Assembly (NCBI GenBank): GCA_964483805.1
Contig: CAZADH010000002.1
Location: forward strand, 1,163-65,162
Source of the DNA: an uncultured bacterium
GTDB lineage: Bacteria > Muiribacteriota > Ozemobacteria > Ozemobacterales > Ozemobacteraceae
Reading direction: 5' to 3'
Length of the DNA: 64,000 nt
In this document: piece by piece, positions 3,315 to 54,051 of the stretch
How positions within the stretch are numbered: position 1 is the first letter of the stretch
How the letters are laid out: every line of letters starts with the position of its first letter
The notes under the pieces: generated by a model
The model's input: the letters and a program-made list of their open reading frames with translations, nothing else
Database searches by the model: none
Told to the model about the DNA's origin: nothing
Program-made: the position numbers and the translations under genes

Positions 3315-6300
3315 TCACACGACAACAGCAACCTCGTGTATTGCTTCACCCGCAAACTCGCCAGGAAGGCGCAATTCGGGGCGCGGCTCGCACGAGACCG
3401 AGGGGGCGACGACTGCCGTCGTCGGTCCATCGAGCATGATGCCGGTCGCGGTCGCCTGTTTGCTCGCGGCCTCGAGCAAAGCCGCGCGTTCGAGGGGCGG
3501 GCCGAGAACGGCGCGCGCCAGCCGGCCGGACTGACTGCCGACGAGGCCGACGACGGCGGCGCCGGATGCGATGCCGATGCCGGTCTTGATGGTGAACTGG
3601 CCGGCGCGACGGCGGCGACCGTTGAAAACGGTGAGGGCCGCGCGCATGGTGCGCGCGGCCTGCACGGCGCGCTGTTCGCGCCGGGCGTCGTCACGCCGGG
3701 CGTCGTCGCCTTCGACCCGGTCGACAGAGGAACAAGCGGTGGCCGTGGCGTGTGGCGATGGGGCATCCCCGGGGCGGTCCAGGAAAACGGCGAGTATGGC
3801 ATCGCCGATGAACTTGTCGATGGTGCCGCCCTGCTCGCGAATGCACCACTCCATGGCGGTGAAGTAGTCGTTGAGCATGGCGACGATCTCTTCGGGCGGG
3901 TACTGTTCGGACAGCGTGGTGAAGCCGCGAATGTCGGACGTCAGCACGGTGACATCGGCCAACTCGCCACCGGGCGCCAGGGCGGCATCTTCGTCGCGGC
4001 CGACGACCTGCAATACATCGTCGGACACGAAGCGGCTCAACTGCTCGCGTTCGCGCAATCCCTGGGCCATGCCGTTGAACACTTCGGCCAGGTGGCCGAA
4101 CTCGTCGTTCTGGGCGAGCACGAGGCGCCAGCGGTAGTCGCCACGTGCCGTCGCCCGCATCGCAGCGAGAAACGTCGGCAGCGGCCAGGTAAGCAGACTG
4201 GCGACACCGCCGATGACGGTCAGGGTGATGCAGGACAAGACGGCGAGCAGGCCAAAACCGAGCGACATCGCTCCACCCCAGCGTGCCGTTGCAGCGACCG
4301 GCGCCGACCAGGCGACACCCCGGTAGTTGGCTTCGACGAAGAAACGGGGGGCCAGGACATCGGGCCGGGGCGCGGTCGGGTCGGCCAGCAACGCGCCGAT
4401 GCGTTGTTCGAGGCGCCGCCGCGACAGGTGACGCGGCTCGGTGCCGTGCAGGGCCTCGATGAAATACCGTGTATGCCAACCCAGATGCACCTCGTCGAAA
4501 GCGAGCGGCCGGCTCATCGTCGAGAGAGTTTCGGGAAATCGCTCACACAGCTCGGGGATCTGCTTCAACGCACGCGCGCGCAACGCCCTGGTGAGGGCGC
4601 TAAGGTAACGCTGGTTGCATGCATCATTGCCGCCGATGAGAAAGGCCAGTCCGACCACGGGGCCCGCCCGCACACGATGTGCGTAGTGGGCGTTTGCCGC
4701 CATGGACGGCGGCCCGGAACGCAGTTTCGGGCAGTGCAAACGACCCGCCCGCGCGGAGCTACCGCAGTGCAAGGCGGCGTTGTTTTGGGGGCCTCGAAGG
4801 GTGCCGTTGCTCCGCGGTGCATCGGCGCCGTGTGCCGTCAAGAACCCGCGCTGAAGCCCTGCATCGGCTGTCGAGGGTCCTGGCCGAGGCTCCTGGAGAA
4901 TCGCGATGCCTTCCCACTGGTCGGTGTTTCCCAGCAGGCTGCGGTGCATGCGATTCGGCGCCGCCAGCATCTGGCCGTAGTAACTCATGTCGAGAAACTG
5001 CTCGGCAATGCTGCGCGCGAGAATCGTCTGCGTCTCGAGGCCCGTGGTTCCCGAGCGCGGCCGAAACACGCCGAGTTGGGTCATGGTTTCCTGGGCCATG
5101 GTGCGGGTGATCGTCGACATTTTCACGGCTTCGCTGCGCCCTTCTTCGCCATAGTCAGACCAGAACCACTCGCGACCATCGGCCGCGTAGAGGAACATCG
5201 AGCGGCACAACTCCTCGCGCTCGATGATCCGCCGCATGGCTGATTTGACCGCGGCGGTCGACGAGGCCATCGACCCGGTCGAGATCAGGACCGCAAGCCG
5301 TTCGTTCCACCGGCGCAACCGGGCGGCCCACTGGTGATTGGCAATGCTGAGCCCGCGGTCGATGCGTTCGAAAGTGCGCTGCGCCCGATCGCGCACCTGT
5401 TGCGGCACCACGGCCTGGCGGGCCTGCTCCCAGGCCACCGACATGGCGACGAGGCCGAGCACCGGCAACGCCAGGCCCAAACCGAAGGCCACACCCATCT
5501 TGGTGCGCAGGTTGAGCCCTGCGGGCAGGCCGAACCACACGAGACGCACCGAGATCACCGTAGCGAAGGCGAAATACAGCCATCCCAGGCACGACAGACC
5601 GGGCAACCAGTCATGCCAGGGATGACGCCAGAGGGCCCGGGGGGCGAACACCGCCAGAGCAAGCCGGGACGCAGCCGTGCGGGGCGAGCCATACGTTGTA
5701 TGACGATCGACGCGGCGAATGTCGCTGCGGAAGCGGGTCGGCAACCGCGAGTAGTAGACCATACCGGCCTTGGTATCGAAAAAACCGCAGTGCGTTCCCG
5801 CCGGTGCCCGCACCAGACCGCGGCGAAGCGGCGGGTTCGACGACCGCGCCGCCAGATTTGCCATTTGCCGGCTCCGATCGACGCGACCGCCATCGAGAAT
5901 CGCCACATACATGGCATCGAACTCCGCGTGGATGCGCCGACCTTTGGGAATCGAGGAAACCCACCCGGCAATGCCGTGCAGAACCCGCATCGGCCGGAAC
6001 GCACTCAGGAGCATCTGGTTCTCGGGGCGCATGCCGGTGATGCCGGCGCCGCGCCCGACCAGTTCCTCGAACAGGCGTTGGCCGTGAGCAAAGTAATGGT
6101 CCTCGGGATTGGCACCGGCCTTGTGCACGATGCTGCGTACATGCCACGGAACGGCAATCTCGCGCATGCGGCGAAGCACCGCTGCCGTGGCAACTCCCCT
6201 GGGCGCCACCTCCGGATTCCACCATGTCCAGGTCGTCTGTGGTTCGGCCGCCAAAAACCACAGCGCCACCACGGGCATGCCGGTATGACGCTCACACGCC

Positions 6301-6668
6301 TCGCGAACGCGGGTCAGGTCGGCCGCCGAGCAGGAGCGCCAGCGGGCGACCTCAGTGGCGGTGGCGTCCTCGTGCATCCCCAGCTCGCGATTGAGCCGCC
6401 GAACGAACGGATTCGCGCCGGCACCGACAGCCGTTTCGGCCTCGAACTCGACCATCTCACCGGTAAGGTTCTGCCGACACAACACCCGCAACGCGTTCTC
6501 TTCATCGACGACCAGTTTGTTGATCCAGAAGCGCAGGGCCACCAACGGGATGAACACGAGCAGGAGCCAAACGACGACGAGACCGCCCGCGGCGATCGGC
6601 ACGATGCGAGTTACCGCGGGAGCCGCAGCATCGAGCAATACATCGTCTGTATTCTCGAGGCGGGTCAC
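3315..6668 (-). CDS. membrane sensor class III nucleotidyl cyclase (cyc2): multi-TM sensor, HAMP, CHD cyclase
   Basis: C-terminal SDIRGFTTLSE ... IDKFIGDAILAVF cyclase motifs follow a HAMP-like helix (FNGMAQGLREREQLSRF). Start reassigned to GTG 6668, with AGGAG SD 7 nt upstream and a GTGA overlap with the stop of the upstream gene. The track start at 6764 would overlap the upstream gene by 100 nt. Asn/Arg catalytic residues are replaced (VLGPPLERAALLEA). Confidence 0.8.
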   Translation of the reverse strand: MTRLENTDDVLLDAAAPAVTRIVPIAAGGLVVVWLLLVFIPLVALRFWINKLVVDEENALRVLCRQNLTGEMVEFEAETAVGAGANPFVRRLNRELGMHEDATATEVARWRSCSAADLTRVREACERHTGMPVVALWFLAAEPQTTWTWWNPEVAPRGVATAAVLRRMREIAVPWHVRSIVHKAGANPEDHYFAHGQRLFEELVGRGAGITGMRPENQMLLSAFRPMRVLHGIAGWVSSIPKGRRIHAEFDAMYVAILDGGRVDRSRQMANLAARSSNPPLRRGLVRAPAGTHCGFFDTKAGMVYYSRLPTRFRSDIRRVDRHTTYGSPRTAASRLALAVFAPRALWRHPWHDWLPGLSCLGWLYFAFATVISVRLVWFGLPAGLNLRTKMGVAFGLGLALPVLGLVAMSVAWEQARQAVVPQQVRDRAQRTFERIDRGLSIANHQWAARLRRWNERLAVLISTGSMASSTAAVKSAMRRIIEREELCRSMFLYAADGREWFWSDYGEEGRSEAVKMSTITRTMAQETMTQLGVFRPRSGTTGLETQTILARSIAEQFLDMSYYGQMLAAPNRMHRSLLGNTDQWEGIAILQEPRPGPSTADAGLQRGFLTAHGADAPRSNGTLRGPQNNAALHCGSSARAGRLHCPKLRSGPPSMAANAHYAHRVRAGPVVGLAFLIGGNDACNQRYLSALTRALRARALKQIPELCERFPETLSTMSRPLAFDEVHLGWHTRYFIEALHGTEPRHLSRRRLEQRIGALLADPTAPRPDVLAPRFFVEANYRGVAWSAPVAATARWGGAMSLGFGLLAVLSCITLTVIGGVASLLTWPLPTFLAAMRATARGDYRWRLVLAQNDEFGHLAEVFNGMAQGLREREQLSRFVSDDVLQVVGRDEDAALAPGGELADVTVLTSDIRGFTTLSEQYPPEEIVAMLNDYFTAMEWCIREQGGTIDKFIGDAILAVFLDRPGDAPSPHATATACSSVDRVEGDDARRDDARREQRAVQAARTMRAALTVFNGRRRRAGQFTIKTGIGIASGAAVVGLVGSQSGRLARAVLGPPLERAALLEAASKQATATGIMLDGPTTAVVAPSVSCEPRPELRLPGEFAGEAIHEVAVVV

Positions 6669-9600
6669 GACGGCACTCCTGCCAGTTCGAACACCGAGAT
6701 GGCCTGGGCCTTGCCCTTCACCGCAATGGCCCCGAGTCCGGCGAGAGTGAAGCCCTCGTTGCAACCGGCCGCGGTCGCGGCATCGAGGACGATCCCGGTG
6801 GCAACCGCCCGACGGCTCTCGCTCTCGAGGCGGGCCGCGAGGTTCACGGTATCGCCGATGACGGTGTGATCGATGCGACGCAGGCGCGAACCGATGCGTC
6901 CCGAGATCACCACGCCGGTCGCCATGCCGATTCCCAGAGACAAGGGCGGATCATCGGGCGTCACGGCCCGACGGCGACGGTCGAGATCGGCCAATGCAGC
7001 CCGCATCGCCCACGCGGCCCGGGCCGCCCGCACGGCGCTATCGTCTTGCGGACCGGGGGAAAACACGGCCATCACCGCATCACCGATGTATTTGTCGATA
7101 CTGCCACCATTGCGGGTCACCGCCGCCTCGGCCAGCGGAAACCAAGCGTTGAGCAGGTCGATGATCCAGCCCGGCGACCGCCTGGCCAACAGACCCGAAA
7201 AATCACGCAGGTGGGCGAACAACACGGTGGCGGCGCACCGCTCGCCGCCGGGGGCCAGATCGGCCCCGGTGCCGGCCTGCACCGTCGAGAGAACCTCAGC
7301 GGAGACGAAACGGGTCAGGCGCAAACGTTCGCGCAATCCCCGGCACATGTTGTTGAACTCGCCGGCGAGCTGGGCGAACTCGTCACGCGTGTCGCAACGC
7401 AGCTCGACGTCGAGCAATCCCTCGGTCACCCGGGTTCCGCCCTGCGACAGAACCCCGATCGGCCCCACGAAAACCCGCTCGAGATAACGCACCAACACAT
7501 AAAGCAATACAACACAGTACAGCGCGAGAGCGAGCAGCAACAGACGCTGGTTCCACACCTGCACCGGGCTGTCGGGTTCGACCAGAGCGACCGCGACCCA
7601 GGGAACGCCGTCGAACGACTGGACCACACCTACACCGCCATCGGCCGCCGGCAGGACGACGGCGGCCCCGGCCCGCGCCTCGAGAAGGCCCTCACGCGCC
7701 ACCTCGGCCAAAGCCCCGTCGTGCCGGGCCGAGATCGGCCAACACTGCTGGGGCTCGAGCTGCGGGTGATCGGCATCGGTGATGCGAAAGAAAGCGATGC
7801 GATCACCCTGGCGACACTCGAGTTGCTCGGCAAACGGCGCGGCGCGACGCCGACGCGCGAAATAGTCGTCGGCCGATCGTTCGGTGCGCTGCAACGTGAA
7901 CAACTCGGCCACGGGCAACCGGTCGCGCCGCGAGTCGGGGAAAACAAGAAACTGCAAGACGCGGCAGTTCTTCAGGCCACTGAAGCCGGAATCGGCCGGC
8001 GCGCCGTCGTCCATCACCAGGGCGCGAACATCGCCCACCCCGATGTTCTCGGCAATCGCCCATCGCGACCGGGTCAGATACGACGGCGCCCCGGGGCGCC
8101 CAAGGAGTTGCGGCGTAAATATGCCGTATTCGGCCAGGCTGCGAATGGCAAACAACCGGCCGAACTCCCGCAACTGGTCGGCCGCCACCGGATCGAGCTG
8201 CACAGGGTCGGAAGCAGGCGCACGGACTGTCCATTCCTCGCCCGAGGCCGCGATCAGGTGCACGGCATCGAGACAAGCGGTCTGCTGCAGGCGCGCCAGT
8301 CGGGCCGCCACCCGCGACCGATCGCGCACGAGATCGGCCCCGAGCCGCTCACGCACACGCGAAATCGCGGCGGCATGAAAGTCGGCGTGCGCGGCCAGAT
8401 CGGTGCCGACCACACCGATCTTCTCGCGAACCTCGTTGAGTCGTCGATCGACGTCGAGTTGGCGCGCAAAGCCGTGCCACGCCACAGCCACCAACCAGAA
8501 GCCCACGATGGGAACGACGACGGCGAGGCCCGTCGCCACCGCGAGCTTGCCCCAGATCGACAACGGCAGACGCACATCGTGCCGGGCCAACCGCCACAGC
8601 AGCACCGCGATCGCCAGGGCACCCAGGCCGAGCGCAATTCTGACCCACGGCAGCAGCGGCCGCAGCGGATGCACGAGACTCGCCAACGGCCGCCACACCA
8701 GCATGACGGGCGGTCGCGATCGGGGCCCCGGTCGACCACCCGAAGTATCGGCCCAACGGGCGGTGGTGTCGCGGTGCAACGGCCAGGCAAGTGCGTAGAT
8801 GTGCCGCGAACGGACGAACCGGGGCGACATGGCGGCCACTCTGCGGGTCAGGCGCCAGTTGGCGCCGCGCCGGTGCCGGCCCAGCCACAATCCGGCCGGC
8901 AAATCGGCATCGCGCAGAATCGCCAGGTAGCCACCGACGATCGGCGCGTGCGGATGATCGGAGGCCGGCAGGAAGCGGGTGTAGATCCAGAGCGGTCCGC
9001 CCCCGAACTTGGGCGAATACATGCCGACCACGGCCCCCCGGGGACTGCGTGCCGACGCATACTCGCCCAGCATGCTGCGCAACAGGCGATCGGCCATGGC
9101 CGGCGTCACGCGCTGCGCCGCCGCGACCGCACCCGGATCGGCCCAGGCCTGTCGGGTGCCCAATCCACCCATGAACTGCAGGATCTGCCGCGCAGCTTTC
9201 TGCGACGGCCGATTCAGGGCGGTAAAATACTTTGTATTGCCATGCACGATGACGTCGGCACCATCGGAACCGGCGACAAACACCGCCAGAGGCTCGGTTC
9301 CGAGCCGTCTCGACAACGCCGGCACCAATCGCCGCGCCCAGTGTTGAGCCGGGATCGGTCCGGACTCCGACGCCGCGAAGTGCCAACTGCGCACCCGCTC
9401 CGGATCGGGCCAACCGACGTCCTGTTCGGCGCTGTGCAGCAGACCGCGCAAACCGGTGGCCGGCTCGAGGGCGGCTGCTTCACGACGGGCCTGCGCGACC
9501 ATCTCGCTCTGCACGGTCGCGAGCAGATCCTGTTCGACCCGACCGATGATCGAGACCACCGCACGTTCACCGACCACCAGCGGAACCACGAGGCCCAAGA

Positions 9601-9701
9601 GCCACGCACACACCAGGACCCACGCGCGCGGACGCGCCGGCGACAGGGGGGTGCTCGCCGCGGTCGATCCGACATCATCAGGACGATGCATCGATGGCGT
9701 G
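6665..9701 (-). CDS. membrane sensor class III nucleotidyl cyclase (cyc1), paralog of cyc2-4
   Basis: HAMP (FNNMCRGLRERLRLTRF) plus cyclase motifs IDKYIGDAVMAVF and TVIGDTVNLAARLES are present. The first metal-binding Asp is replaced by His (VLFAHLRDFSG). Start taken at ATG 9701 (MHRPDD..., signal/TM follows); the track ORF extends to 10303 without support. Confidence 0.8.
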
Positions 9702-42800: not shown

Positions 42801-45800
42801 CCGGCTCCAGGCGATGCTCGGGGCGGCCGGCAATCGCGATCGTCCGTTGTTGTATGCGAATCTCATCGATATCCTCACGTTGGCCACCTCGACCGCGGCG
42901 CTCGACGAACTCGGGCGCCAGATCCGCCAGGCCGACAACCTGAACGACGCCACCCGCTGGGGCCTGATGTATCGCCTGGGCACCCGCCTGTACGCCATGG
43001 ACCCGAGCAAATCCCGCGAGGTGTTCGCCGAACTGGCCGCCAGCGCCTCGGGAACGACCCGGCTCAAGTGCCTGTTGACGCTGGGCAACATCGCCTACCG
43101 CGTCGAGAAGAACCAGGCCGAAGCCATCAAGGCCTACGAGGCTGCGTTGGCCATGGCCCCGCTCGATCCGCTGCTCGAAACGCCGACGTACCGCCTGGGT
43201 CGTCTCTACGCATGCCGGGGCGAAGGCGTGTTGGCCATCACCACGCTGAATCAGTTCATCCAGCGATTCCCGCTCAGTCGCCACCTGGCGAAGGCCTACC
43301 TCGCGCGCGGCCAGATCGAACTGGCGTTGCACCGGCCCGACCTGGCCGAACGCTCGGTGCGGCGGGCCCTCACCCTCGACCCGCCACTGGCCGAAAAGGC
43401 CAAAGACCTGGTCACACAAATCGAAAAGGCCATGCCGGTCGATCGCTGGCTCGCGGCACGGCGACGGACCCTCGAGGCGCGCCAACTCGAGCAACACGAT
43501 GTATTTATGGCCAGTCTGACCCTGGCCATGACCGCAACCGGAACCTCCCGTGTTCCCGTCCCCGGATGGCGCGAACCCGAGCAATTGCGGGCCCGGGCCG
43601 CTCTGTTGTCGGGGCATGTCGGTTCCGAGACCGGTTCGGCGGCCGGTGACGAACGGTCAGGAGCCACCGCGAGCGGCGCCGAACTGCTCGATGTCGAAAC
43701 GCTGTCGCCGACCGAGATTTATCAGCGTTTTCAGGCCGAGGCGATCAAGGCCAAGCCCGCTCCACAGGTCGGCGCCGAACTGTTGTTGACCCTCCTGCGC
43801 CGCTCACCACGCGAACAACCGCAACTGTGGCAAAAGGCCCTGCGGCAATACATCAGTTGGCGACTCTGGCGGCGGCCCGATCAAGCCGCCTTCGTTAAAG
43901 AGGTCGCGGCGCTGCTCGAACGCCACAACTACAGCGAAGATGTTGCCGAACTGGCCTACCGGCACGGCGCCGTACTCGATCGCGTCTTGCAGCGCTTCGA
44001 GCAGGCGAACAAGTCGTATTTCCAGTATCTCTCCTTCTATCCGAAAGGAGCGCGGGTGAAGCTCGTGCGTGCCCGCATTCCGCAGGTCTACGAGGAACTG
44101 AACGACACCAAATCGGCGAAGCGTTTCTACCAGAAGGTCGTCGACGATCCGCAGATGGGCGACGAACTGCGCGTCGATGCCTCGGTCCGCCTGGGCCGCA
44201 TGATGGCCAAGAGCGACGGCGAGTCGGGGCGCGCCGATATCCAGAAGCTGCTCGAATCCGCGCTGGCACTCGACACACCACGACGGCCCGAACTGTATCT
44301 GCGGCTCGAGAAGCTCACCTCAAACCAGGAGTACGTCGAGCGTGCGCTCGAAGCGAAAGGCGCCGAGCCCTTCCGGCTGCTGGCGTTGAAGCGACTGGTC
44401 AAAAAAGCCGAAGAGAAAGATTTCGACAAAGCGCTCGAACTGGTCGAGAAATACAAATCATCATTCAGCGAAGACGATTCCGTCATCTGGCTCGACAAGA
44501 AACTGAGCGATCTGGCCAAGCGCGGGCAGATCAGCAAGATCGAGGACCAGATCGAACAGTTCCCCGAAGAGGCCCAGACCCCGCAGCGGATCTTCCAGTT
44601 GGCCAACCTCATCGAAGGCCTCGAAAACACCCGCTATCGCTCGCAAGACCTGTTCTACGAAATCACCCTGGTCTACCCACACTCGCAGTATTACCGCGAG
44701 AGCAAGATCCGCGCCGAGAACACCCGGGCCATCGAGGCGGTGCATGCCTTGAGTGCGGCGTTGAAGAAGGGTGTGCAGGGAGCGGACGGCGACTCGTTGT
44801 TGCTCGAGCGCGCGCGCATCTATGCGACCAAGCTGCAAGACGACAGCAAGGCCCAGGAAGACTGCGAAGCCGTGTTGACGCTGTTCCCGAACTCACCGCG
44901 GCGCTGGGAAGCAATGCGGGGCCTGGGCGACGCCATTCTGCGTGCGGAGCGCAACGCGGAGCGCGCGCTGCGGTATTACGAGCAGGCGCTGGCCGCATGT
45001 CCGGATGCCGAGGAACGCGGCAAGCTGACGGCCAAGGTCGACGCGCTCGTCGAGTTTCGCGACAAGGTGCTCGTTGCCGATGGTGATGTGAAGGCCCAAC
45101 AGACGGGCCTCGACCACATCCTCGCGGTCTGGCGCCTCGACCTCGAACCGGAACGGGCGCTCGCGCTGATCCAACAGGCGCGCACGGTGCTCGAGAACAA
45201 GCCGCTCGCCGCCCGCCTGTGGTATCTCGAAGGCCGCCTGCTCGAACAGTCGGGCAAAAAGGCCGCTGCGTTGCTCGCCTATCGCAATGTGGTCGACAGC
45301 ATCGCCAACCCTGGAGCCCGCAAGGATGTCGCCTGGTATCGCATGATGCGCCTGCATCTCGAAGCCGGCGATCGCAGCGCCGCCGAGAAAGACGCCATTG
45401 CGCTGACCACGCGGTATCCGCGCTCGCTGATGGCCCGCAGCGCCTGGTATCGCCTGGCCTGTTGGCGTGAGGAAGCCAAGGATCTGAGCGGGGCGCACGC
45501 GGCACTCGACCGGTTGTTGTCGTACCGGGCGCTGATCCCGACCCACCGCACGCACCTGACCAAGAAACAAGCCGACATCGAGGCGCGCATGAACCTCGAA
45601 GACCTCGATCGGTTGCGTGCCGCCAGCAAGGTGCAGAACAATTTCCGCTATCTGGCCGCCCGCCTGCTCGAGAACGACCAACGCGATTCCGAGCGGGCCA
45701 TGGCGGAGTATCAGGCCTATCTCGCCACCCGCCCGGGCGTCGCCCGTTCGCGCGAAATCCTGATGAAACTGGCCACGATGGCCGAACGCAAGGGCGATTA

Positions 45801-46812
45801 CGCGGCGGCCATCGGCTACCTCGATCAGTTGATGGGCACGCGCGAACCGTGTGCCGAGAACCTCGATCTGGTCACGCGCATCGGTGGCCTCCTCGAAGAC
45901 AAGGTCAACAACCCCGAACTGACGACCCTGTTCTTCCAGACCGTCGCCGACGTGCATCGGCAGGTGCCGCAGGTGCGGCGGTTCGCCCTCTCGAAGATCA
46001 AGCGCATGGAAGAGAAAGCCCGCGTCAAGGTGGCCGGCCCGGTGCGCCGCAAGGTCAAGCGCGAGTACACCGAAGAAGACAAGGAACTGCTCACCGAGAT
46101 CGACGACATACTTGGTAAATACGTCGACGATCAGGCCGATTTTGTCAGGGCCGAGCGCGAACTGCTCGACATGTGGGATGCGAACCCGAAATCGGAGGCG
46201 GTTGTCGACATCATGAAGGAACTGGTGGCGCTCAACGAAGAGCGGCTGCTCGACCCGGGCAAGGCCACCGAGTACTACGAGCGCTTCCTGAAAGAACGCC
46301 CCGACGATCCCGAGGTCGAGGCCCTGACCTTGAAACTCTACGAATTGTACTCGACGAAACTGCAGAACGGCGAGAAGGCGCTGCAGGTCTTGAGCGACTT
46401 CGAACGCAAGTTCCCCAATTCGACCATGCTGCTCGAGATCCAGTTGAAACTGGGCAAGGCCAACGAGACGTTGACCCGCAACTACTCCGAAGCCCGGCGC
46501 ATCTACCAGCGCATCATCGACACCCAGAAGAACGACCCGATCGTCCACGAAACGTATTTCCGCATGGGCACACTGTTGCGTGACGGTTTCGCCGACTACA
46601 ACGGGGCCATCGCCATGTGGCAGTCGATGAATACGAAGTTCTATCAGAATGCCTTTGCCGCCGAAGCCGTCTACGAGATCGGTTTGACCTACGAGGTCTA
46701 CTTGCGCGACTTCACCAAGGCGAAGGACGCCTTCAACTCGATCCTGCGGCAATGGCCGAACACACCGCTGCAGAACAAGGTCCGCGAAGCGATTCTCCGC
46801 GTCGGCGGTTGA
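39895..46812 (+). CDS. giant (~2300 aa) TPR-repeat protein, probably secreted or membrane-anchored
   Basis: Continuous ORF with many TPR-like helical repeats. A hydrophobic signal-like segment LLPVLVALVLVPVGWAQS lies ~95 aa in, so the true start may be an internal TTG/GTG near 40177. Low-complexity Ala/Thr/Pro-rich region follows. Confidence 0.7.
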   Translation: MRCFWYTDPAAVACRRVVRRFPCGKPYDNCGRLFGKGSGHPPLTKFSATTHDTTLPLSRDCRLRKQQFGATRDGASCAAAGPHSAGFARLCRGWLLPVLVALVLVPVGWAQSASPAANVVAGTPAGASAPTVSPVTAMASTTPLATPAAVVSATATAISAASTVAVSSETAETDPEFATASASVRGATRNDEDDDASASATIASPTRTQPTILPDGRKVWPGDPGPLPEDGAVGGIPGDAPPSTSPLPVPEPAPVATGSARPFDPGTARWVKPLGKPGSEPGLPASGSAMPRLGSDAEVLLPLPEVPLATGSAGYEVPLATGLPRPPQAPMATVASLTTEPPVDDETDAASGTANASGTRSARGRGKKGGKETDVEDPALIKAQHERNKSEIMAFLRETPTREPGERWLFLAKYCADLDDPDGARELLRRVVRAVPVAAERKWEAQLLLAEILEKQKMYAEALKELERLLSWQPQRQYKVRAELARARLFSRDLTHFSDLLKAYRRYHAWFPDANEPEELVYFSGFEKGYNLEIAIHAIEAWEKIASFPELPAANEARLQLAIIEGYDLGRARQALTLLSRIGPPYKDAAEIRSLLVRGAIQHLHIQPPADPKVALAAYREYLARETDIDGWRTGQMLLGDLLRDRLNDPREAVDVFLGLTQIPPHLATESLRSLKRARERADDDRAWALLGYKMAGHCAEFNAHDLDRALMTYRQGIELARATVASGTKDDGTVFWFETAIARTEPKTSKAQALFDQAVERYRSRDLEGGVRLFDQFVASHPDHLLRREAMFRAVQIVDDDLHRFDDALARYQRYLIEVSPRKSKWQLDAIYDWGRADEARYRIGNLLARHRSEFVKALKTFADLSAAYPDSFWAKQGVVDSIEIYQKRLDDENRAREFMRQYIDRWPNDKKSQDYRRYLAKALIAQGLAGQAMGLLQDLIDHGSPTDKESVATRQLLRDLSFSQQKDRLQAMLGAAGNRDRPLLYANLIDILTLATSTAALDELGRQIRQADNLNDATRWGLMYRLGTRLYAMDPSKSREVFAELAASASGTTRLKCLLTLGNIAYRVEKNQAEAIKAYEAALAMAPLDPLLETPTYRLGRLYACRGEGVLAITTLNQFIQRFPLSRHLAKAYLARGQIELALHRPDLAERSVRRALTLDPPLAEKAKDLVTQIEKAMPVDRWLAARRRTLEARQLEQHDVFMASLTLAMTATGTSRVPVPGWREPEQLRARAALLSGHVGSETGSAAGDERSGATASGAELLDVETLSPTEIYQRFQAEAIKAKPAPQVGAELLLTLLRRSPREQPQLWQKALRQYISWRLWRRPDQAAFVKEVAALLERHNYSEDVAELAYRHGAVLDRVLQRFEQANKSYFQYLSFYPKGARVKLVRARIPQVYEELNDTKSAKRFYQKVVDDPQMGDELRVDASVRLGRMMAKSDGESGRADIQKLLESALALDTPRRPELYLRLEKLTSNQEYVERALEAKGAEPFRLLALKRLVKKAEEKDFDKALELVEKYKSSFSEDDSVIWLDKKLSDLAKRGQISKIEDQIEQFPEEAQTPQRIFQLANLIEGLENTRYRSQDLFYEITLVYPHSQYYRESKIRAENTRAIEAVHALSAALKKGVQGADGDSLLLERARIYATKLQDDSKAQEDCEAVLTLFPNSPRRWEAMRGLGDAILRAERNAERALRYYEQALAACPDAEERGKLTAKVDALVEFRDKVLVADGDVKAQQTGLDHILAVWRLDLEPERALALIQQARTVLENKPLAARLWYLEGRLLEQSGKKAAALLAYRNVVDSIANPGARKDVAWYRMMRLHLEAGDRSAAEKDAIALTTRYPRSLMARSAWYRLACWREEAKDLSGAHAALDRLLSYRALIPTHRTHLTKKQADIEARMNLEDLDRLRAASKVQNNFRYLAARLLENDQRDSERAMAEYQAYLATRPGVARSREILMKLATMAERKGDYAAAIGYLDQLMGTREPCAENLDLVTRIGGLLEDKVNNPELTTLFFQTVADVHRQVPQVRRFALSKIKRMEEKARVKVAGPVRRKVKREYTEEDKELLTEIDDILGKYVDDQADFVRAERELLDMWDANPKSEAVVDIMKELVALNEERLLDPGKATEYYERFLKERPDDPEVEALTLKLYELYSTKLQNGEKALQVLSDFERKFPNSTMLLEIQLKLGKANETLTRNYSEARRIYQRIIDTQKNDPIVHETYFRMGTLLRDGFADYNGAIAMWQSMNTKFYQNAFAAEAVYEIGLTYEVYLRDFTKAKDAFNSILRQWPNTPLQNKVREAILRVGG

Positions 46813-46902
46813 TTCAACGATTCTGCCCGACTGTCGCGCCATTGCGTTCGGGCGACAGATCTGCTTGAATGAAGGTTCACTTTTCGGAGGCAGGGAGGCC
46901 AG

Positions 46903-48279
46903 GTGCTGCGCGGCAACGACATGATCCAGTTGTTGGAACGCAAAGACCGCTTCGTCATTGACTGGGCGGTGGCTGTGTTGCGCGAAATCGGGCCGGAGCC
47001 GCATCCGCTCGAATCGGAACTGGTCGAGGTCATCAAAGGCACGGCCCTGCCTCTGACCCTCGCCGCCCTGTTGCCGGTCTTGCGTGACGAGAAGAACCCG
47101 CAATCGTTGCGTGACAAAGTGATGGCCAATTTGGTCGAGCGTGACCGGTTGATGCTGCGCTTGATCAACGCGTGCACGCGGGCCAGCCAACGTGAGCGAC
47201 TTCTCAATCCGCTCGCCGCCATGATGGTCGACGCGACCAGCGACATTGCCTGCTTCTCGGCGCTGATCCGGTTGCTCCTCGGGCATCGTGAATCGCGCGA
47301 ACGCCTGCTCGCCGGCTTCGACAGCCTGTCGCGCATCCAGCGTTGGAACGTCGTGGTCAGTCTGGAAGCGACCGGCGATCTGCAGTATCTGTCGTTGTTC
47401 ATTTCGGCCCTCGAAGACAGCGAACCCACGGTCGTGCAGGTGGCGGTGAAAGCCCTGGGGCGTCTGGGCGCCCACGCGGCAATCGACGAGATCATCGGCA
47501 AGCTCACCCATCCGCGCGAAGAGGTTGTGCTCAGCGCCGTGCGCACGCTCAGCGAGTTTCGTGACTCGCGCGCCACGCTGCCGCTCATGAAGCTGATGGC
47601 CGGCACGCGCAGCCATCGCGTCCGCGCCACGGTCATCGCCGCTCTGGGCGGCTTCGCAGAAACACGGACTATTCCGGTAATAACCCGGTATCTCGCCCAC
47701 GGTGACGAGCGGGTGCGTGCGAACGCCGTCTCGGCAATCAGCCAGAAGATGCTGGCCACGGGCAAGCAAGATCCAGAGATCATCAACCGCATTCGCGAAA
47801 TGCTCGGCGATCCCAACCATCGGGTGCGCGCCGATGTCATCAGCAGTCTGTGGCAACTGGGCCAGATCGACAGTCTGACCGAAATCACCAAGATGGCGGC
47901 CTCGACCAACGACGAAGAACGGGCGGCCGGCGCCTATCTGGTCGGGCGCCTCAAGCTTCTGCAGTTCAAAGAGATGCTGATCGGTCTGACCGGCGATCCG
48001 GTGTGGTCGGTGCGCAAACTGGCAGCATTGTCATTGTTGTCGCTTGGCGATGCGGGCAAAGCGGTGTTGAAGGGGTTGTTGTCGCAGGGCGATGAACGCC
48101 AGCGCCTGGTCGCCGCCTTCGCGCTGTCGATGGGCGGTTATCCCGACGCGCACGGCCTGTTGCTGTGGGCCTCGCGCCAGGGCGGCAGCGACGGCGCCCT
48201 CGCCACCCAGTTGTTGAGCCAGTTGTCAGGCACGCCCGTGGGTGCGGTCGCGGCGGGTGACATCGAATCCGACGGTTGA
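46903..48279 (+). CDS. HEAT (PBS-lyase-type) repeat protein
   Basis: Repeats ..VRANAVSAISQ.., ..VRADVISSLWQLG.., ..VRKLAALSLLSLGD... GTG start with GGGAGG SD 4 nt upstream. Confidence 0.75.
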   Translation: MLRGNDMIQLLERKDRFVIDWAVAVLREIGPEPHPLESELVEVIKGTALPLTLAALLPVLRDEKNPQSLRDKVMANLVERDRLMLRLINACTRASQRERLLNPLAAMMVDATSDIACFSALIRLLLGHRESRERLLAGFDSLSRIQRWNVVVSLEATGDLQYLSLFISALEDSEPTVVQVAVKALGRLGAHAAIDEIIGKLTHPREEVVLSAVRTLSEFRDSRATLPLMKLMAGTRSHRVRATVIAALGGFAETRTIPVITRYLAHGDERVRANAVSAISQKMLATGKQDPEIINRIREMLGDPNHRVRADVISSLWQLGQIDSLTEITKMAASTNDEERAAGAYLVGRLKLLQFKEMLIGLTGDPVWSVRKLAALSLLSLGDAGKAVLKGLLSQGDERQRLVAAFALSMGGYPDAHGLLLWASRQGGSDGALATQLLSQLSGTPVGAVAAGDIESDG

Positions 48280-51211
48280 CCCCACCCCGTTGACCGGCGA
48301 CGCCCACAGTTCTGCAGCCCCCCCCAAGGCGTTGCCCCCGTCTGTTCCAGACGACGGCGCGGGACACCGGTCACGCTGGCTGACCGTGCTCATCGGCTGG
48401 ACCATCGTCTACTGCTCGCTCGTGATCACGCCGGCGGTGATGTGCTATATTGTATTTACATCTGCCGCCGCCACTCGCTTCAATAGCCGGCTTGACGACG
48501 TGCGGCGCGACCTGGCGGTGCGCGGCGATCGTCTCGTGGCGCGCTGTGAGCGCGAGAAGGTCGTGGTGGGTCTCGTCGAGGGCCTGAACCGTCGCGGCAT
48601 CGCCGGTTTCCTGGCCAGGGCCCAGACCTGGCAGCGCCATCACCCGGGAGCGATGCGTTGGATCGCCTGGGATCGCACGGGAACGCTGCTCAAGATGCCC
48701 GACGAGTTGTCGGTGAACGGCAAACGTGCCTGGCAGGAGGTCGTACGCAAGATCTGGCATCCCGATGCCGGCAGCCGCACGACGGTGGCCGAGCGCGCCC
48801 AAGTCGTCGCGGGTTTGCAGCGGTTCCTTGGTCGGCGTCCGGTGGCCGGCACGCTGGTCGAGTCACCCCGGCGCCTGATCTCGACGGTCATCCTCGATCG
48901 GCCCTGTTGGTTCGTCTGGGCGCACCACCGGCCAGCACCCCACACGCAACCCGCACCAGTCGGCGATCCGCTCGGGGGGATTCTGCTGCAGGTCTTTCCT
49001 GAGAAACTGCCGGCCCAGTTCTGGATCGATCCGGTCTTGCGCCTGGCCGCGCGCGACCATGCCGACCGCCAGCCTCCGTTCGTCATGTTCGATCTGTGCG
49101 AACCGTGGCGCAATGTGGTGTCACCGTCGTTGGCCCGTCTTTCGCAGGGTTTCGTGCCCACGTTGCGCCGACGTTTTCTCGAGCGCAGCAGCGAACTGAT
49201 CCAGGTCGGTTCCTACATTGCTGTCCCGGTTTCGCTCGACGCGGCGGGCGACACCCCGCAGCGGCTGCTGGTGCTCGCCGACATCGCCGACCTGTACCTG
49301 GAGCGAGCCACCGCCGAGCGCCGATCCGGCCACCTCTTGCTGCTCTTCCTCGTCGCCACAGCAGCCGGTGGAGCATACTGGGGGCGAAGCGGCGGTCACG
49401 GGGTGTCGCTGCGGTTGCGGGTGGTGCTGTTGTTTGGCGCCGCCGTGTTGTTGCCCACGCTCGGCCTGGTCGTCGGCGGCGCCCAGCTCGTCCGGTGGGA
49501 GGACCACAGCGAACGGGCCGTCGCCATCGACATGCTGCAACAGTCGGCGCTGCGGCTGAACGCTCGCGGCTACATGTATTTCGAAGAATACGGCGAACGG
49601 GTCCGGGAGCGCCTGGTCGCCCGCATTACCGGGCTCACCCGGGAACAGGATCTGCTCGCCGCCCTGCGCACGGCCATGCGCCAGGGCCTGGGGTCGAGTT
49701 TCTTCGTTTCCAGACTCGATGGGGGATTGTGGACATCGGGAGGCCGCCGCCTTGCCTCGGGCCCTCTCGAAATGCTGCGTTTCGCCATGCGTCGCGAACA
49801 CAACGAGGACGTCAATCTGCTCGCCCAGAGCGTCGTTTCGCCGCCGGGGCAGAAAGCCGACGTGCCATGGGTGCCCCTGACCGCAACCGCGGGAGCGGTG
49901 GTGTCTCGCATCAACGCCGTGCGCATGCTGCGCCTGGGCGATGCGGAATACGCGGTATTGAAGATGGCCGTCACCATCAACTTCCGCACCCGCCTGGTCA
50001 TCGTGGTATTCGATCCCCACGACCTCGAACTCGATCTGGCGGCCCGTGCCAGTCTGAGTATGCGCCGGCGCGAACTGCGCTCGCCAACCGCGCTCGCGCC
50101 GCGGGTCCATTTCGTGGCGGCAACACCGATCGGCGGCTGTTCCTGGCTCAACGCCTCGCTCGGTCGCCAACCGGCGGTCGCCCGGGCCGTTGCCCTCGAA
50201 AACGAGACGGTGGGCCTCATCGACTGGGCCGGTGAGACTCAACTGTTCTTCGTGCCGGCCCGCGAGACGCGGGCGGTGTTGCGCCCCATCTGGTTGTTGC
50301 CCGACCGCGGCATCCGCGCACGCATGGAGCGGCGGTGGCAGTTGATCGTGCGCACCGCAGCGTTGACTTCGGTGGGCGCGATTGCGCTGGCGTTGGCGCT
50401 CGCGGCCGGCGTTCTCGGGCCGGTTCGCCGCCTCGACCAGGCCGTCGCCGCCGTCCGCGCCGGCGATCTGCACTCCCGGGTCGACGGCGTCACCCGCGAC
50501 GAGATGGGGATCCTGGCCATGGCCTTCAACGACATGGTCGGCCGGTTGCGCGAACGGGAGCGGATGAAGGCCTACGTCTCGGCCACGGTCCTGGCAGCCG
50601 TCCGCGACGACACCGTGTCGCGCGGCGCGAGTGCACGTTCGGCACGCGTCACCGTGCTGTTCTCGCACATCGCCGCTTTTTCCCAGATCGCCCGCACCTG
50701 GACCCCGGAGGCTGTGTTTTCCATGCTCAACAGCTACTTCGCCGGCGTCGAACCGGTCGTGCGTGAGCAGGGCGGCGACATCGACAAGTTCATCGGTGAC
50801 GCGGTCATGGCCAGGTTTTTTGGTGACGGTCAGGAACGGCAGGCGGTCAATGCCGCACTGGCAATGCGCCGGCACTTGAATACATACAACGTAAGTCGCC
50901 AACAGGCCGGGTTGCCCGCAATCAACATCGGGATCGGGATCAACACAGGGGAGGTCATGCTCGGCGATGTCGGCAGCCGCAACCGCAAAGACCTGACCGT
51001 CATCGGCGACGCCGTCAACCTTGCCGCCCGCCTCGAGGTAGTGGCGCATCAGGGCACGCACACGCGCATCGTCGTCTCGGCAGAAACGGCCGGACAGCTC
51101 GAACCGTCGCTGCGACTGGTCGAGTTGGCGGTCACCACGGTCAAGGGCAAAGACCGCCCCGTGCAGGTATTCGAAGTGGTCGGGCCGACCGACGCGCAGG
51201 TGCCCCAGTGA
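48242..51211 (+). CDS. membrane sensor class III nucleotidyl cyclase (cyc3); His replaces first metal-binding Asp
   Basis: HAMP (FNDMVGRLRERERMKAY) followed by VLFSHIAAFSQ ... IDKFIGDAVMA ... TVIGDAVNLAARLE. Start uncertain: the track GTG at 48242 overlaps the HEAT gene by 38 nt, and alternative TTG starts lie at 48290 and 48332. Confidence 0.8.
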   Translation: MRSRRVTSNPTVDPTPLTGDAHSSAAPPKALPPSVPDDGAGHRSRWLTVLIGWTIVYCSLVITPAVMCYIVFTSAAATRFNSRLDDVRRDLAVRGDRLVARCEREKVVVGLVEGLNRRGIAGFLARAQTWQRHHPGAMRWIAWDRTGTLLKMPDELSVNGKRAWQEVVRKIWHPDAGSRTTVAERAQVVAGLQRFLGRRPVAGTLVESPRRLISTVILDRPCWFVWAHHRPAPHTQPAPVGDPLGGILLQVFPEKLPAQFWIDPVLRLAARDHADRQPPFVMFDLCEPWRNVVSPSLARLSQGFVPTLRRRFLERSSELIQVGSYIAVPVSLDAAGDTPQRLLVLADIADLYLERATAERRSGHLLLLFLVATAAGGAYWGRSGGHGVSLRLRVVLLFGAAVLLPTLGLVVGGAQLVRWEDHSERAVAIDMLQQSALRLNARGYMYFEEYGERVRERLVARITGLTREQDLLAALRTAMRQGLGSSFFVSRLDGGLWTSGGRRLASGPLEMLRFAMRREHNEDVNLLAQSVVSPPGQKADVPWVPLTATAGAVVSRINAVRMLRLGDAEYAVLKMAVTINFRTRLVIVVFDPHDLELDLAARASLSMRRRELRSPTALAPRVHFVAATPIGGCSWLNASLGRQPAVARAVALENETVGLIDWAGETQLFFVPARETRAVLRPIWLLPDRGIRARMERRWQLIVRTAALTSVGAIALALALAAGVLGPVRRLDQAVAAVRAGDLHSRVDGVTRDEMGILAMAFNDMVGRLRERERMKAYVSATVLAAVRDDTVSRGASARSARVTVLFSHIAAFSQIARTWTPEAVFSMLNSYFAGVEPVVREQGGDIDKFIGDAVMARFFGDGQERQAVNAALAMRRHLNTYNVSRQQAGLPAINIGIGINTGEVMLGDVGSRNRKDLTVIGDAVNLAARLEVVAHQGTHTRIVVSAETAGQLEPSLRLVELAVTTVKGKDRPVQVFEVVGPTDAQVPQ

Positions 51212-54051
51212 CCCGCAACGACAAGACCGAACCGGCAAGAGTGCCGCTCTGGCAATGGTTTGTCTTGTATCTGCTCGTTGTTGCCCTGCCGTCGTGGATG
51301 GTCGCCGACTATTTCCGGGCGTTGTTTGCCGAACAGGCTGAGACCCGCAGCCAGATGGCCGCAGCCAAGCTTTCGGTCGATGCGGCGGCCGCCGCGCACT
51401 TCTTCCGCTCGTCGTTTCTGCTCGAGTCGCTCCTGACCCGCTCTGCCTGGCCCGAGGCGCGTTGGCCGCAGTTTGTCGAGGCGCTCGAACGTCGCTACCC
51501 AGGTGCCTTTCGCTGGATTCTCTACGACCGATCGCAGCAGATTATCCCCATCGTCCCGACGGCACGCCTGCCCGGCGGCCCGGGGTTGTGGCATCGGGTC
51601 GTGTCGAGTTACGCCATCGCTTCCATGTCGTTCTACCGGTTGCTCGACGCCCGCCTTGGCACCGATCCGCTTCTGGGCGAAGTGCAGCGCGCGCTCGGCC
51701 CCGGTTTTCGGTTCGAGAACCTTCTCTCGACTTCCAGGGGCGTGCTGTACGGCCCCTGGGAAGGCGAACCTGCCGTCATGGCCTGGTGGCAGGATGGTCG
51801 CGATGCGGCTGACAACATCGTGGATCGCGGCCGCTTGCGCGGGTTTTTCGCGGTCATGCGCCCCGGGCGCCTGCCGCCGTTGCTGCCGATGCGCCTCATC
51901 GTCAGGGGCCACGCCGCGGGCATGCGGCGATCGACCTCATCGTTGGTGGCGATCGACCCCGCCGACCCCCGCCGCTTCTACACCCATCCCACTGTTCCGC
52001 GCGAACCGGCCCTGGGCGAACGGCTCTGGACCGCCCATCGCCACCGCACCGCCGACGTTTTCCGCGTCGATCATTGGCTCGCCACCGCCGTGCCCATCCG
52101 CGAGGCCATGGCCGGCAGGGTTTTTCTCCTGCACGACCTGGCCCCCGGGGAACGGCAGTATCAATGGCAATACAACATATTGATGGTCATCCTGTTCGCC
52201 GTGCAAGCCATCGGCGTGCTGTTGCTGCTCTCCTGCTGGCGCCGCGGGGGGCTCGAACTCGGCCTGCGTTGGCGCATCATGAGTGCCCTCTCGCTGGCCA
52301 TGTTGCTGCCGCTCGGCGGCCTGTATCAACTGGGCGAGCGGATGGTGGCGCGCGAGTATCAGGTCCGCCGCGAACAACTGGCGGCCGGTTTGAGCCGGGA
52401 CCTGGCCTTGGTCATGCCACGGTATCGGGACTTCAGCAGTCGGTATGGCGCCGCTCTGCTGGCCTCACTGACACGCGCTGTGGCCGGCCCGTTGTCGGAG
52501 CGGGAGATCAGCACCCGTTTGCAGCGGTTCGTCAGCCGACCGGCCCACCAGGTTTCCGATTTTTACCTGAGCGACGCCCGAGGACGACTGGCCCGCAGCG
52601 GCCGCGAACAGTCAGACCGGCGGTTCAAGACCATTGCCCAGATCATGTTGTCGGGCGTCTTGCGCGACAATGGCGGCCCCACCGAGTCTTCGGCTTTCAA
52701 CGAGAGCATGCTCGAAACCGTGGCCGAGGTCGCCGAGAAAGACCGCCGCATGGACCAGTCGCTGCTGCGGGTAAACGAGTGGGGCCTGCACATGTTCATG
52801 CGCGACTCGCGCTACATCATTGCCCTGCTGCCCCGGGTCGACGGCACCATGCGATCGTTGCTCGTGCCGGTGAATCCGGCACTGGTGAAGGTTCGCTTTG
52901 CCAATCGCGAGTTCGTGCGCGGACTGACGCCGGAGTTGCAGGCCGTCGGGCTGAGCCGGGCGAACTTCACCTCGGACCAGTGGGGGCACATTCCCGCCGT
53001 GCCGGCCTTCTGGCAGAACGGCGAGATTCGCCAGGCCCTCGAAGATCGGCGGACGCAGCGCGCCGGCGAGTTCACGCTCAACAACGGCCGCTTCCTCTAC
53101 CAGACCGGCGCGCGGACCGCGTTGTTTCCTTACATTTTCGTGGGCGTGGCCCCCCTCGACCCGGTCGCGGCCGAGGTCAATCGACACGCATGGGCGTTTC
53201 GGGGTGCGGCCCTCTTTGTCACCGGCCTGGTGGGCGTTCTCGGCTGGTTATTGGCCGCCGGCCTGCTCGCGCCGATCCGTCGCCTCGAAGTAGCGGTGCG
53301 CCAGGTCGCCGCGGGCAACCTCGACGTCGAGGTGGCCGTGGTGGGCCGTGACGAGATTGGTCGCCTGGCCGAGAATTTCAACGACATGTTCCGCGGTCTG
53401 CGCGAGCGCGAGCGCATGCAGGCCTATGTGTCTCCGGCTGTCCTCGAGGCGGTGCGCGACGACGCCACCGCGGCGGGCCAGCAGGCGCGAACCTGCGAGG
53501 CGACGGTGTTCGTTGCCGATATCCGCTCGTTTACGACCCTGTCGGAGAAACATGGACCGCAAGCGATGTTCGCGATGCTCAACGAGTACATGACGGGGGT
53601 CGAGGCGTTGCTTCGCGAGCATGGCGGACGCATCGACAAGTTCATCGGGGACGCCGTCCTGGCGGTGTTTCTCGACCCAGGTCGTGCGGGCGCCCTCGAG
53701 GCGGTGCGGGCAGCATGGGCCGTCACCCGGTTCGTCGCCGAGTTCAGCACCCGCCGGCAACGGGCCGGGTTGTTCGGGGTGGGCGTCGGGGTCGGCATCA
53801 CCACCGGCCGCGTCCTGGTGGGCACGGTCGGCAGCGCAACCCGCAAAGATCTGGCCGTGATTGGTGACGAGGTCGAGCGGGCCGCGCAACTCGAAGCCGC
53901 CTCGAAACAGGGGCGTCACTCGCGCATCATTCTCTCGCCGGCCACCCACGACCTGGTCAAGGATGTAACTCGTTGTATTTCTCTTGCTCCCTCTCACGCC
54001 CGCGATGCCGACCTCGTCGCTTTCGAAGTGGTCGAAGCGCCAAGCGCTTGA
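51208..54051 (+). CDS. membrane sensor class III nucleotidyl cyclase (cyc4); Asps intact, Asn/Arg replaced
   Basis: GTG 51208 overlaps the TGA of cyc3 (GTGA). HAMP (FNDMFRGLRERERMQAY), then VFVADIRSFTTLSE ... IDKFIGDAVLAVF ... VIGDEVERAAQLEAA. Confidence 0.8.
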   Translation: MTRNDKTEPARVPLWQWFVLYLLVVALPSWMVADYFRALFAEQAETRSQMAAAKLSVDAAAAAHFFRSSFLLESLLTRSAWPEARWPQFVEALERRYPGAFRWILYDRSQQIIPIVPTARLPGGPGLWHRVVSSYAIASMSFYRLLDARLGTDPLLGEVQRALGPGFRFENLLSTSRGVLYGPWEGEPAVMAWWQDGRDAADNIVDRGRLRGFFAVMRPGRLPPLLPMRLIVRGHAAGMRRSTSSLVAIDPADPRRFYTHPTVPREPALGERLWTAHRHRTADVFRVDHWLATAVPIREAMAGRVFLLHDLAPGERQYQWQYNILMVILFAVQAIGVLLLLSCWRRGGLELGLRWRIMSALSLAMLLPLGGLYQLGERMVAREYQVRREQLAAGLSRDLALVMPRYRDFSSRYGAALLASLTRAVAGPLSEREISTRLQRFVSRPAHQVSDFYLSDARGRLARSGREQSDRRFKTIAQIMLSGVLRDNGGPTESSAFNESMLETVAEVAEKDRRMDQSLLRVNEWGLHMFMRDSRYIIALLPRVDGTMRSLLVPVNPALVKVRFANREFVRGLTPELQAVGLSRANFTSDQWGHIPAVPAFWQNGEIRQALEDRRTQRAGEFTLNNGRFLYQTGARTALFPYIFVGVAPLDPVAAEVNRHAWAFRGAALFVTGLVGVLGWLLAAGLLAPIRRLEVAVRQVAAGNLDVEVAVVGRDEIGRLAENFNDMFRGLRERERMQAYVSPAVLEAVRDDATAAGQQARTCEATVFVADIRSFTTLSEKHGPQAMFAMLNEYMTGVEALLREHGGRIDKFIGDAVLAVFLDPGRAGALEAVRAAWAVTRFVAEFSTRRQRAGLFGVGVGVGITTGRVLVGTVGSATRKDLAVIGDEVERAAQLEAASKQGRHSRIILSPATHDLVKDVTRCISLAPSHARDADLVAFEVVEAPSA

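Follow-up and report, generated by a model that had tools for sequence, protein, structure and literature searches.

A candidate family of Rifleibacteriota receptors with a duplicated double-Cache-like sensor and complementary cyclase pairs

How do five large receptor genes, which share one architecture and carry two different output enzymes, come to lie within 55 kb of one another, and what do their sensor regions look like? The question is raised by a 64,000-nucleotide stretch of DNA from an uncultured bacterium of the Ozemobacteraceae (contig CAZADH010000002.1 of assembly GCA_964483805.1). This entire stretch is called the window; its GC (guanine plus cytosine) content is 61–68%. The five open reading frames (ORFs) are named cycA, cycB, PP2C, cycC and cycD. 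They had been picked out in an original prediction, made from the letters alone, as four cyclases and a PP2C phosphatase of the same architecture, and all five are present at the positions given for them (Table 1). A scan of the window with family hidden Markov models (HMMs) likewise found exactly five members, a result that is circular for the window proteins themselves. The reading put forward here, to which we assign a probability of roughly 0.7, is that they belong to a receptor family known so far only from Rifleibacteriota, that the sensor is a tandem of transmembrane (TM)–double-Cache-like–TM units, and that the four cyclases form two obligate heterodimers.

The sensor module

All five proteins are built in the same order: TM1, domain A, a TM hairpin, domain B, TM4, a HAMP domain and the output domain. 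This is the arrangement given in the original prediction, and it is borne out by Pfam, by Kyte–Doolittle hydropathy, which gives four TM segments per window protein, and by the AlphaFold model of the PP2C module, which has long helices at the same four places. In the window proteins, domain A spans 268–315 residues and domain B 293–311 residues, or 404 in cycA owing to an insert. The hairpin loops are LNLRTKM (cycA, at 417), LSIWGKL (cycB, 581), ISIRAKL (PP2C, 323), VSLRLRV (cycC, 388) and LGLRWRI (cycD, 351), and the five loop strings listed in the prediction were all found there. As the HAMP and catalytic domains are necessarily cytoplasmic, four TM segments would place domains A and B outside the membrane and the short loop, which carries Arg or Lys, inside. 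Both domains are therefore taken to be extracytoplasmic on the predicted topology.

Only the C-terminal thirds of the proteins are recognised by Pfam, as HAMP and Guanylate_cyc in four ORFs (with a sub-threshold HAMP match in cycA) and as HAMP and SpoIIE in one. The class III cyclase model PF00211 matches all four cyclases with 37.9–72 bits (cut-off 21.9; E 1e-9 to 6e-20), and the SpoIIE/RsbU-type PP2C model PF07228 gives a full-length match of 153 bits (E 9e-45) to a sequence with the metal-binding motifs GGDYYDYF, GDVSGHG, YTDGL and DDIS. The HAMP domain begins within a few residues of TM4 and, in PF00672 (cut-off 25 bits), scores 37.9 in PP2C, 48.2 in cycC, 56.3 in cycD and 25.3 in cycB. 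Within the module, NCBIfam models reach only TM4 and HAMP. The solved cyclases closest by PDB sequence are OaPAC, CyaB and CyaC (E 4e-29 to 7e-20), which we take to be class IIIb enzymes. With these best matches, and with Thr at the substrate-specifying Asp position in cycB and cycC, the sequences assign the window cyclases to class IIIb.

Pairwise comparison of the sensor regions was of limited use. BLAST and single-sequence hhalign aligned cycC with cycD (89% probability over 441 columns) and, weakly, cycA with cycB (50%), and found no match between the PP2C sensor region and the other four. As these methods are too weak for such regions, family profiles were used instead. A MAFFT alignment of the five sensor regions, in which common motifs are visible, was used as a profile to search 1.84 billion cluster representatives exhaustively with HMMER. 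At E<=1e-3 there were 295 matching proteins, 97 of them at E<=1e-10; most have 940–1000 residues. Among the top 150 matches, 73 have a PP2C output and 65 a cyclase output (two of these being double-length fusions), and the rest are fragments. A third output is found in P0084 (1073 residues), where the four-TM, double-domain module is followed by HAMP-GAF-GGDEF with a GGEEM motif. The idea that a shared, modular sensor is fused to different outputs thus stands, with class III cyclase, PP2C and HAMP-GAF-GGDEF as the outputs in the family. Exactly four TM segments with the same spacing are predicted in 108 of 136 relatives, with a domain A of ~270–305 residues and a domain B of ~295–308 residues. 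The family signatures are R-[FY]-P-G-x-F-x-[WF]...D-x-x-G in domain A, which is common to the cyclase and PP2C types, and S-[IL]-R-x-[KR]-[IL] at the hairpin.

By sequence, the sensor regions group into three clusters. One is the PP2C type; the other two are cyclase types, with cycC and cycD in the "CD" type and cycA and cycB in the "AB" type. After removal of their TM segments, the sensor domains of these subfamilies were compared profile against profile. Here, the A domains of the PP2C and CD types match at 98.9% probability (E 1e-17) and their B domains at 98.6% (E 8e-16). The AB type is more distant, with probabilities of 97.7% (to PP2C) and 96% (to CD) for domain B and 92% (to PP2C) and 85% (to CD) for domain A. 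Because corresponding domains match between subfamilies at 85–99%, the five sensor modules are, by these profiles, homologous. The original prediction had named a lack of detectable similarity among the five N-terminal regions as one result that would undo it; the similarity is near noise in pairwise comparison and clear with profiles from about 150 relatives. In addition, domains A and B of the PP2C type match each other at 96% probability (E 4e-9 over 261 columns), which points to an internal tandem duplication of a TM-domain-TM unit as the origin of the module. Relatives with a single, unduplicated unit were sought among the shorter matches, but the latter proved to be fragments truncated at the N-terminus and not ancestral forms.

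The nature of the two domains was addressed at the level of fold. In the five window proteins, the N-terminal ~650 residues have no Pfam match at E<=1, Cache-clan models included, and the module profile had 0 matches among PDB sequences at E<=10. The AlphaFold model of domains A and B of the PP2C module (662 residues, 62-sequence alignment) has a predicted local distance difference test score (pLDDT) of 91.5 and a predicted template-modelling score (pTM) of 0.82, and that of cycD domain A (296 residues) has a pLDDT of 90.8. In each modelled domain, the TM segment runs on into a long stalk helix, and two alpha/beta units come after it. For both models, the top Foldseek lists are almost wholly double-Cache/double-PDC sensor domains, with LuxQ, KinD, McpH, Tlp3, PctA, Mlp24 and DctB as the structural neighbours. 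Consistent with this, Cache domains have been described as taking up all of the extracytoplasmic chain from one TM helix to the next in proteins that bear an output domain (Upadhyay et al. 2016, PMC4822843), and domains A and B each do so in a protein with HAMP and an output. The modelled fold is thus of a known kind, double-Cache-like, and not new. The earlier statement that the domains belong to no recognised sensor family, and are not Cache, holds at the level of sequence, where Pfam, NCBIfam and PDB are silent; it fails at the level of fold, where the Foldseek check that the prediction itself had proposed brings up double-Cache domains, so that a match to a known sensor family, its other stated ground for refutation, was in part found.

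Domains A and B might not sense small molecules at all; they might be docking platforms for periplasmic proteins, as in the LuxQ–LuxP system, or spacers, and the signal would then be a protein–protein contact or the state of the envelope. In its favour, the periplasmic domains of LuxQ rank high in the structural matches, above all for cycD domain A, and invariant polar residues are few in the family, whose signatures consist mainly of P, G, F and W. Most of the structural neighbours, however, bind ligands directly (McpH, KinD, Tlp3, PctA, Mlp24, DctB), and no conserved gene for a binding protein was found beside the family genes in the contigs examined. We consider this alternative unlikely, and it is the one that survives best.

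The cyclase pairs

Solved structures of class III cyclases place the metal-binding Asp residues of either subunit opposite the Lys, Thr (or Asp), Asn and Arg of its partner. Alignment of the cyclase domains gave the catalytic hexad as H-K-D-T-N-R in cycB and cycC, D-K-D-A-E-L in cycA and D-K-D-A-E-Q in cycD. In cycB and cycC, His replaces the first metal-binding Asp, whereas Lys, the second Asp, Thr, Asn and Arg are kept; in an alignment with the solved class IIIb enzyme 5x4t/4yus, a photoactivated cyclase, the position of the cycC His is taken by the Asp of the FSDI motif. In cycA and cycD, both Asp residues are kept, and Ala, Glu and Leu or Gln stand in place of Thr, Asn and Arg, so that Asn and Arg are lost. 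The full hexad is absent from every single chain and is complete only across a pair. The genes are translationally coupled in two pairs: the GTG start of cycA overlaps the cycB stop as GTGA (6665–6668), and that of cycD overlaps the cycC stop as GTGA (51208–51211).

The pattern is not confined to the window. The hexads of 67 cyclase domains of the family divide as follows: 21 are canonical, 25 are without the first Asp and keep Asn/Arg (17 of them with His), 19 have both Asp residues and lack Asn and/or Arg, and 2 fit neither description. The partners of non-canonical pairs are adjacent in all eight cases examined. Six of these have a 4-nucleotide overlap with the C2-like gene first, and they include P0009, P0016, P0041 and P0044, each a C2-like protein followed by a C1-like gene. 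The gene order is reversed in P0069/P0077, which also overlap by 4 nucleotides, and the partner of P0042 lies beyond a small Hpt gene. The pairing recurs on six other contigs (L001, L002, L003, L085, L086 and L087). The canonical P0006, P0008 and P0011 are solo genes (3/3), and P0043 is a natural fusion of a C2-like and a C1-like half. Given the geometry of facing subunits, the complementary residues would give each adjacent pair one complete active site and one degenerate pocket. We infer that cycB with cycA, and cycC with cycD, are two obligate heterodimeric enzymes. The original count of four cyclases is right for the ORFs; complementary hexads, GTGA overlaps and recurrent pairing make two heterodimeric enzymes the better description.

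Two genes were noted beside or within cyclase pairs. An MscS-type channel with a cyclic-nucleotide-binding domain, which could be an effector, adjoins one pair (L085, 6186–7778, minus strand), and in another pair the partners are separated by the gene of a small Hpt protein (L086, 7975–8349, plus strand).

The four cyclases might instead be independent homodimers, with cycA and cycD as decayed or dead pseudo-enzymes or pure sensors, cycB and cycC weak or dead, and the pairing a matter of operon organisation only. This would agree with the loss of part of the hexad from every chain taken alone and with the odd inserts in domain B and the cyclase domain of cycA. It is at odds with losses that are complementary, not random, with the recurrence of His in place of the first metal-binding Asp (17 of the 25 proteins that lack it and keep Asn/Arg), and with the adjacency of complementary partners in 8/8 cases, seven of them with a 4-nucleotide start/stop overlap. 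Further evidence against it comes from the solo canonical members, the fusion P0043, and the conservation of C1-like and C2-like clades across genomes, which argues for purifying selection. Independent homodimers are therefore improbable, somewhat more so than docking platforms, and obligate heterodimers remain the preferred reading.

The proposed heterodimers recall mammalian adenylate cyclase C1/C2 and the alpha/beta subunits of soluble guanylate cyclase, in which the metal-binding Asp pair is on one subunit and Lys/Thr with Asn/Arg on the other. Unlike mammalian C1/C2, the subunits here are encoded by separate, translationally coupled bacterial genes, each with its own four-TM receptor and HAMP domain, and His replaces the lost Asp. 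In a limited, non-exhaustive search of the literature, no account of class III cyclases that occur naturally as heterodimers in bacteria was met with.

Distribution, age and gene neighbourhood

One genome per species was scanned with the PP2C-type alignment as the query. All named genomes in which the match reaches into the sensor are Candidatus Riflebacteria, Rifleibacteriota or Ozemobacteraceae; in other phyla, the match is limited to HAMP-PP2C. The receptor family is restricted, as known so far, to the candidate phylum Rifleibacteriota. The term "lineage-specific" in the original prediction was well chosen, as every named genome that bears the module belongs to Candidatus Rifleibacteriota, Ozemobacteraceae included.

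The same cannot be said of "recently expanded". The sensors of the window paralogues are 14–25% identical (best E 3e-6). In sensor-only BLAST against other genomes, the window proteins gave E values of 1e-25 to 1e-102, with a coverage of 93–98% for four of the five; the best relative of cycA elsewhere has 69% coverage and E 5e-39. In a neighbour-joining tree of the cyclase domains, cycA, cycB, cycC and cycD each belong to a different clade, and all four clades also hold sequences from elsewhere. As relatives in other genomes are much closer than the window paralogues, and as the cyclase domains form four separate clades, the expansion that produced the five genes is old, not recent. The prediction had also asked whether domains were shuffled. 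The sensor clusters co-segregate exactly with output type, and thus there is no sign of recent domain shuffling. A recent expansion in this genome, with a sensor of truly new fold shuffled onto different outputs, would suit the lack of Pfam, NCBIfam and PDB sequence matches in the sensor region, the five copies within 51 kb and the two output types of the window, but it is already largely refuted by these identities, by the far closer relatives and cyclase orthologues in other genomes, by the match of sensor cluster to output and by the double-Cache-like predicted fold, and is very unlikely.

The coordinates of the receptor genes and their parts are collected in Table 1. The start of cycB is likely the ATG at 9691, since a Shine-Dalgarno-like GAAGGAAA lies upstream and the 204 residues of the ORF before this ATG are an implausible, Arg-rich sequence. 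In cycA, domain B holds an insert of ~70 residues rich in Pro, Gly, Ala and Arg (window 4660–4890, minus strand), and the cyclase domain holds a second, Asp/Arg-rich insert of ~30 residues (about 3620–3770, minus strand). The possibility that the ~70-residue stretch is a frameshift artefact was ruled out, as the other frames have no match to the family profile; it is thus an insert.

Table 1. Window coordinates of the five receptor genes and of the predicted parts of their products
Gene	Coordinates	Strand	TM1	Domain A	Hairpin	Domain B	TM4	HAMP	Output domain	Remarks
cycA	3315–6668	-	6549–6605	5589–6548	5436–5588	4248–5435	4191–4247	4050–4166 (putative)	cyclase 3459–3959	1117-residue deposited NCBI protein, P0003; putative C1-like subunit
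cycB	6665–9691	-	9569–9625	8657–9568	8483–8656	7547–8482	7490–7546	7346–7477	cyclase 6698–7231	putative C2-like subunit; putative class IIIb cyclase
PP2C	15801–18662	+	15825–15881	15882–16685	16686–16841	16842–17723	17724–17780	17775–17933	SpoIIE-type PP2C 18072–18635	sensor phosphatase; solo gene within the window
cycC	48242 (long ORF) or 48386 (deposited GTG start) to 51211	+	48389–48457	48458–49330	49331–49477	49478–50359	50360–50416	50399–50554	cyclase 50636–51163	P0004; putative C2-like subunit
cycD	51208–54051	+	51247–51315	51316–52176	52177–52332	52333–53211	53212–53268	53251–53406	cyclase 53488–53961	P0001; putative C1-like subunit

Several other genes of the window were noted. A sixth cyclase (60968–62998, plus strand) has a CHASE2 sensor unrelated to the family and a fully canonical catalytic hexad. 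Directly upstream of cycC are genes for a 2305-residue TPR protein and a 458-residue HEAT-repeat protein (39895–48279, plus strand), and the end of the HEAT gene overlaps the long cycC ORF. A HEAT-cyclase fusion is encoded upstream of another cyclase pair (L003, 2942–5965); apart from this fusion, HEAT or TPR genes were not found beside the cyclase pairs on the other contigs examined. A small STAS-domain protein (29139–29513, minus strand) is encoded ~10 kb from the PP2C receptor, and its gene adjoins that of an 893-residue HEAT-repeat membrane protein (29526–32207). Further genes, at 55233–56966 (minus), 32400–33893 (plus), 37839–38789 (plus) and 595–3049 (minus), comprise a HAMP-MCP chemoreceptor, a voltage-gated-type K+ channel with RCK, an AbiEi-family antitoxin, and Uma2 endonuclease-like and AAA-ATPase/PD-(D/E)XK genes.

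PP2C-type receptors also occur in head-to-tail arrays of 2–5 genes, often overlapping, at the Rifleibacteriota loci L014, L018, L020–L026, L029 and L030. Commonly, two neighbours in such an array differ: domains A and B are both clear in one, and the profile matches just a part of domain B in the other. The phosphatases of the arrays may also pair.

Proposed signalling and relation to known receptors

In the proposed mechanism, each chain would present two related Cache-like domains (A and B) of ~270–310 residues in the periplasm, and the short Arg/Lys-bearing loop would link them on the cytoplasmic side. A periplasmic ligand, or a partner protein as for LuxQ, would act on both domains. By analogy with other Cache-HAMP receptors, the signal would leave domain B through TM4 and HAMP, which would switch the output enzyme: a class IIIb adenylate cyclase for four of the genes and a SpoIIE/RsbU-type PP2C for the fifth. 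The only route from domain A to the output would be the hairpin or a packing contact with domain B. The module would therefore probably integrate two inputs or form an intramolecular pseudo-dimer, as proposed for GlnX; the high pTM of the two-domain PP2C model is consistent with a fixed arrangement of A and B. In each cyclase heterodimer, the upstream subunit would give Lys, Thr, Asn and Arg and the downstream subunit both metal-binding Asp residues, and up to four different periplasmic domains would control one site that forms cyclic adenosine monophosphate (cAMP). The Lys/Thr pair makes cAMP the most likely product. STAS proteins are the usual type of substrate of SpoIIE/RsbU phosphatases, and the PP2C receptor probably dephosphorylates a STAS-type partner-switching protein.

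Several observations weigh against this reading. The TM topology comes from hydropathy and AlphaFold, and heterodimerisation is deduced from sequence and gene order. Metal might yet be bound by the conserved His, in which case homodimers could be active. The Foldseek template-modelling scores (TM-scores) of 0.2–0.5, with a high root-mean-square deviation, denote a match of fold class and not a close superposition, and the Pfam/Cache-clan models dCache_1/2/3, sCache and Cache_3-Cache_2 have no match in 50 diverse family members at E<=1. The HAMP match of cycA is partial (profile positions 15–53) and, at 23.5 bits, is below the 25-bit cut-off. The best sensor relatives of the window proteins are ~30% identical. 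Moreover, no conserved polar pocket residues were identified in the family, and binding of a periplasmic partner protein in the manner of LuxQ is as possible as that of a ligand.

Cache domains are the commonest extracellular sensors of bacteria and normally occur once per chain. The module is like the double-Cache sensors LuxQ, KinD, McpH, Tlp3, PctA and DctB in its predicted stalk helix and two PAS-like alpha/beta units, followed by HAMP and an output. It is unlike them in that two such domains stand in series in each chain with a TM hairpin between them, and in having its own signatures and no Pfam match in the Cache clan. Nothing specific on tandem Cache domains with an intervening TM hairpin was found in the literature searched.

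The closest architectural precedent found is GlnX of Corynebacterium and Mycobacterium, which has four TM segments, two periplasmic four-helix bundles and a short cytoplasmic loop between TM2 and TM3, and is proposed to be an intramolecular pseudo-dimer that arose when a canonical sensor domain was duplicated along with the membrane anchors on either side (PMC9769921). The module is like GlnX in its four TM segments and two periplasmic domains, and the homology of A and B points to the same kind of duplication. The GlnX domains, however, are all-helical, have ~155 residues and are followed by no cytoplasmic output, whereas the domains here are modelled as ~280-residue, alpha/beta and Cache-like and precede HAMP and an enzyme. 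On these models, the module is an analogue of GlnX and not a member of its family. The phosphatase receptor resembles SiaA of Pseudomonas aeruginosa in its order of TM, HAMP and PP2C, and the NCBIfam SiaA model matches the HAMP-PP2C part (E 1e-19). It differs from SiaA in its periplasmic module; the match scores 70 bits against an equivalog cut-off of 700 and leaves the sensor uncovered.

A wider proposal, which is possible and more doubtful than the reading above, is that Rifleibacteriota have a receptor class of their own. Here, duplication of a TM-dCache-TM unit would have given an intramolecular pseudo-dimer, and gene duplication would then have given obligate heterodimeric adenylate cyclases, each with four different periplasmic Cache-like domains acting on a single catalytic site; the degenerate pocket marked by His would be allosteric, and the enzymes would be an independently arisen, receptor-coupled bacterial counterpart of mammalian C1/C2.

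The main interest of the family is its duplicated-sensor architecture together with the conserved complementary cyclase pairs. In this candidate phylum, large signalling proteins that make up about 300 sequence clusters still escape the sensor models of Pfam and NCBIfam. If true, two Cache-like domains strung through the membrane, with two chains per catalytic site, would act as a naturally occurring integrator of up to four signals, with a logic open to experimental dissection. The co-translated complementary cyclase pairs, if true, would offer a simple model for the origin of the asymmetric C1/C2 design and for the role of its degenerate second pocket.

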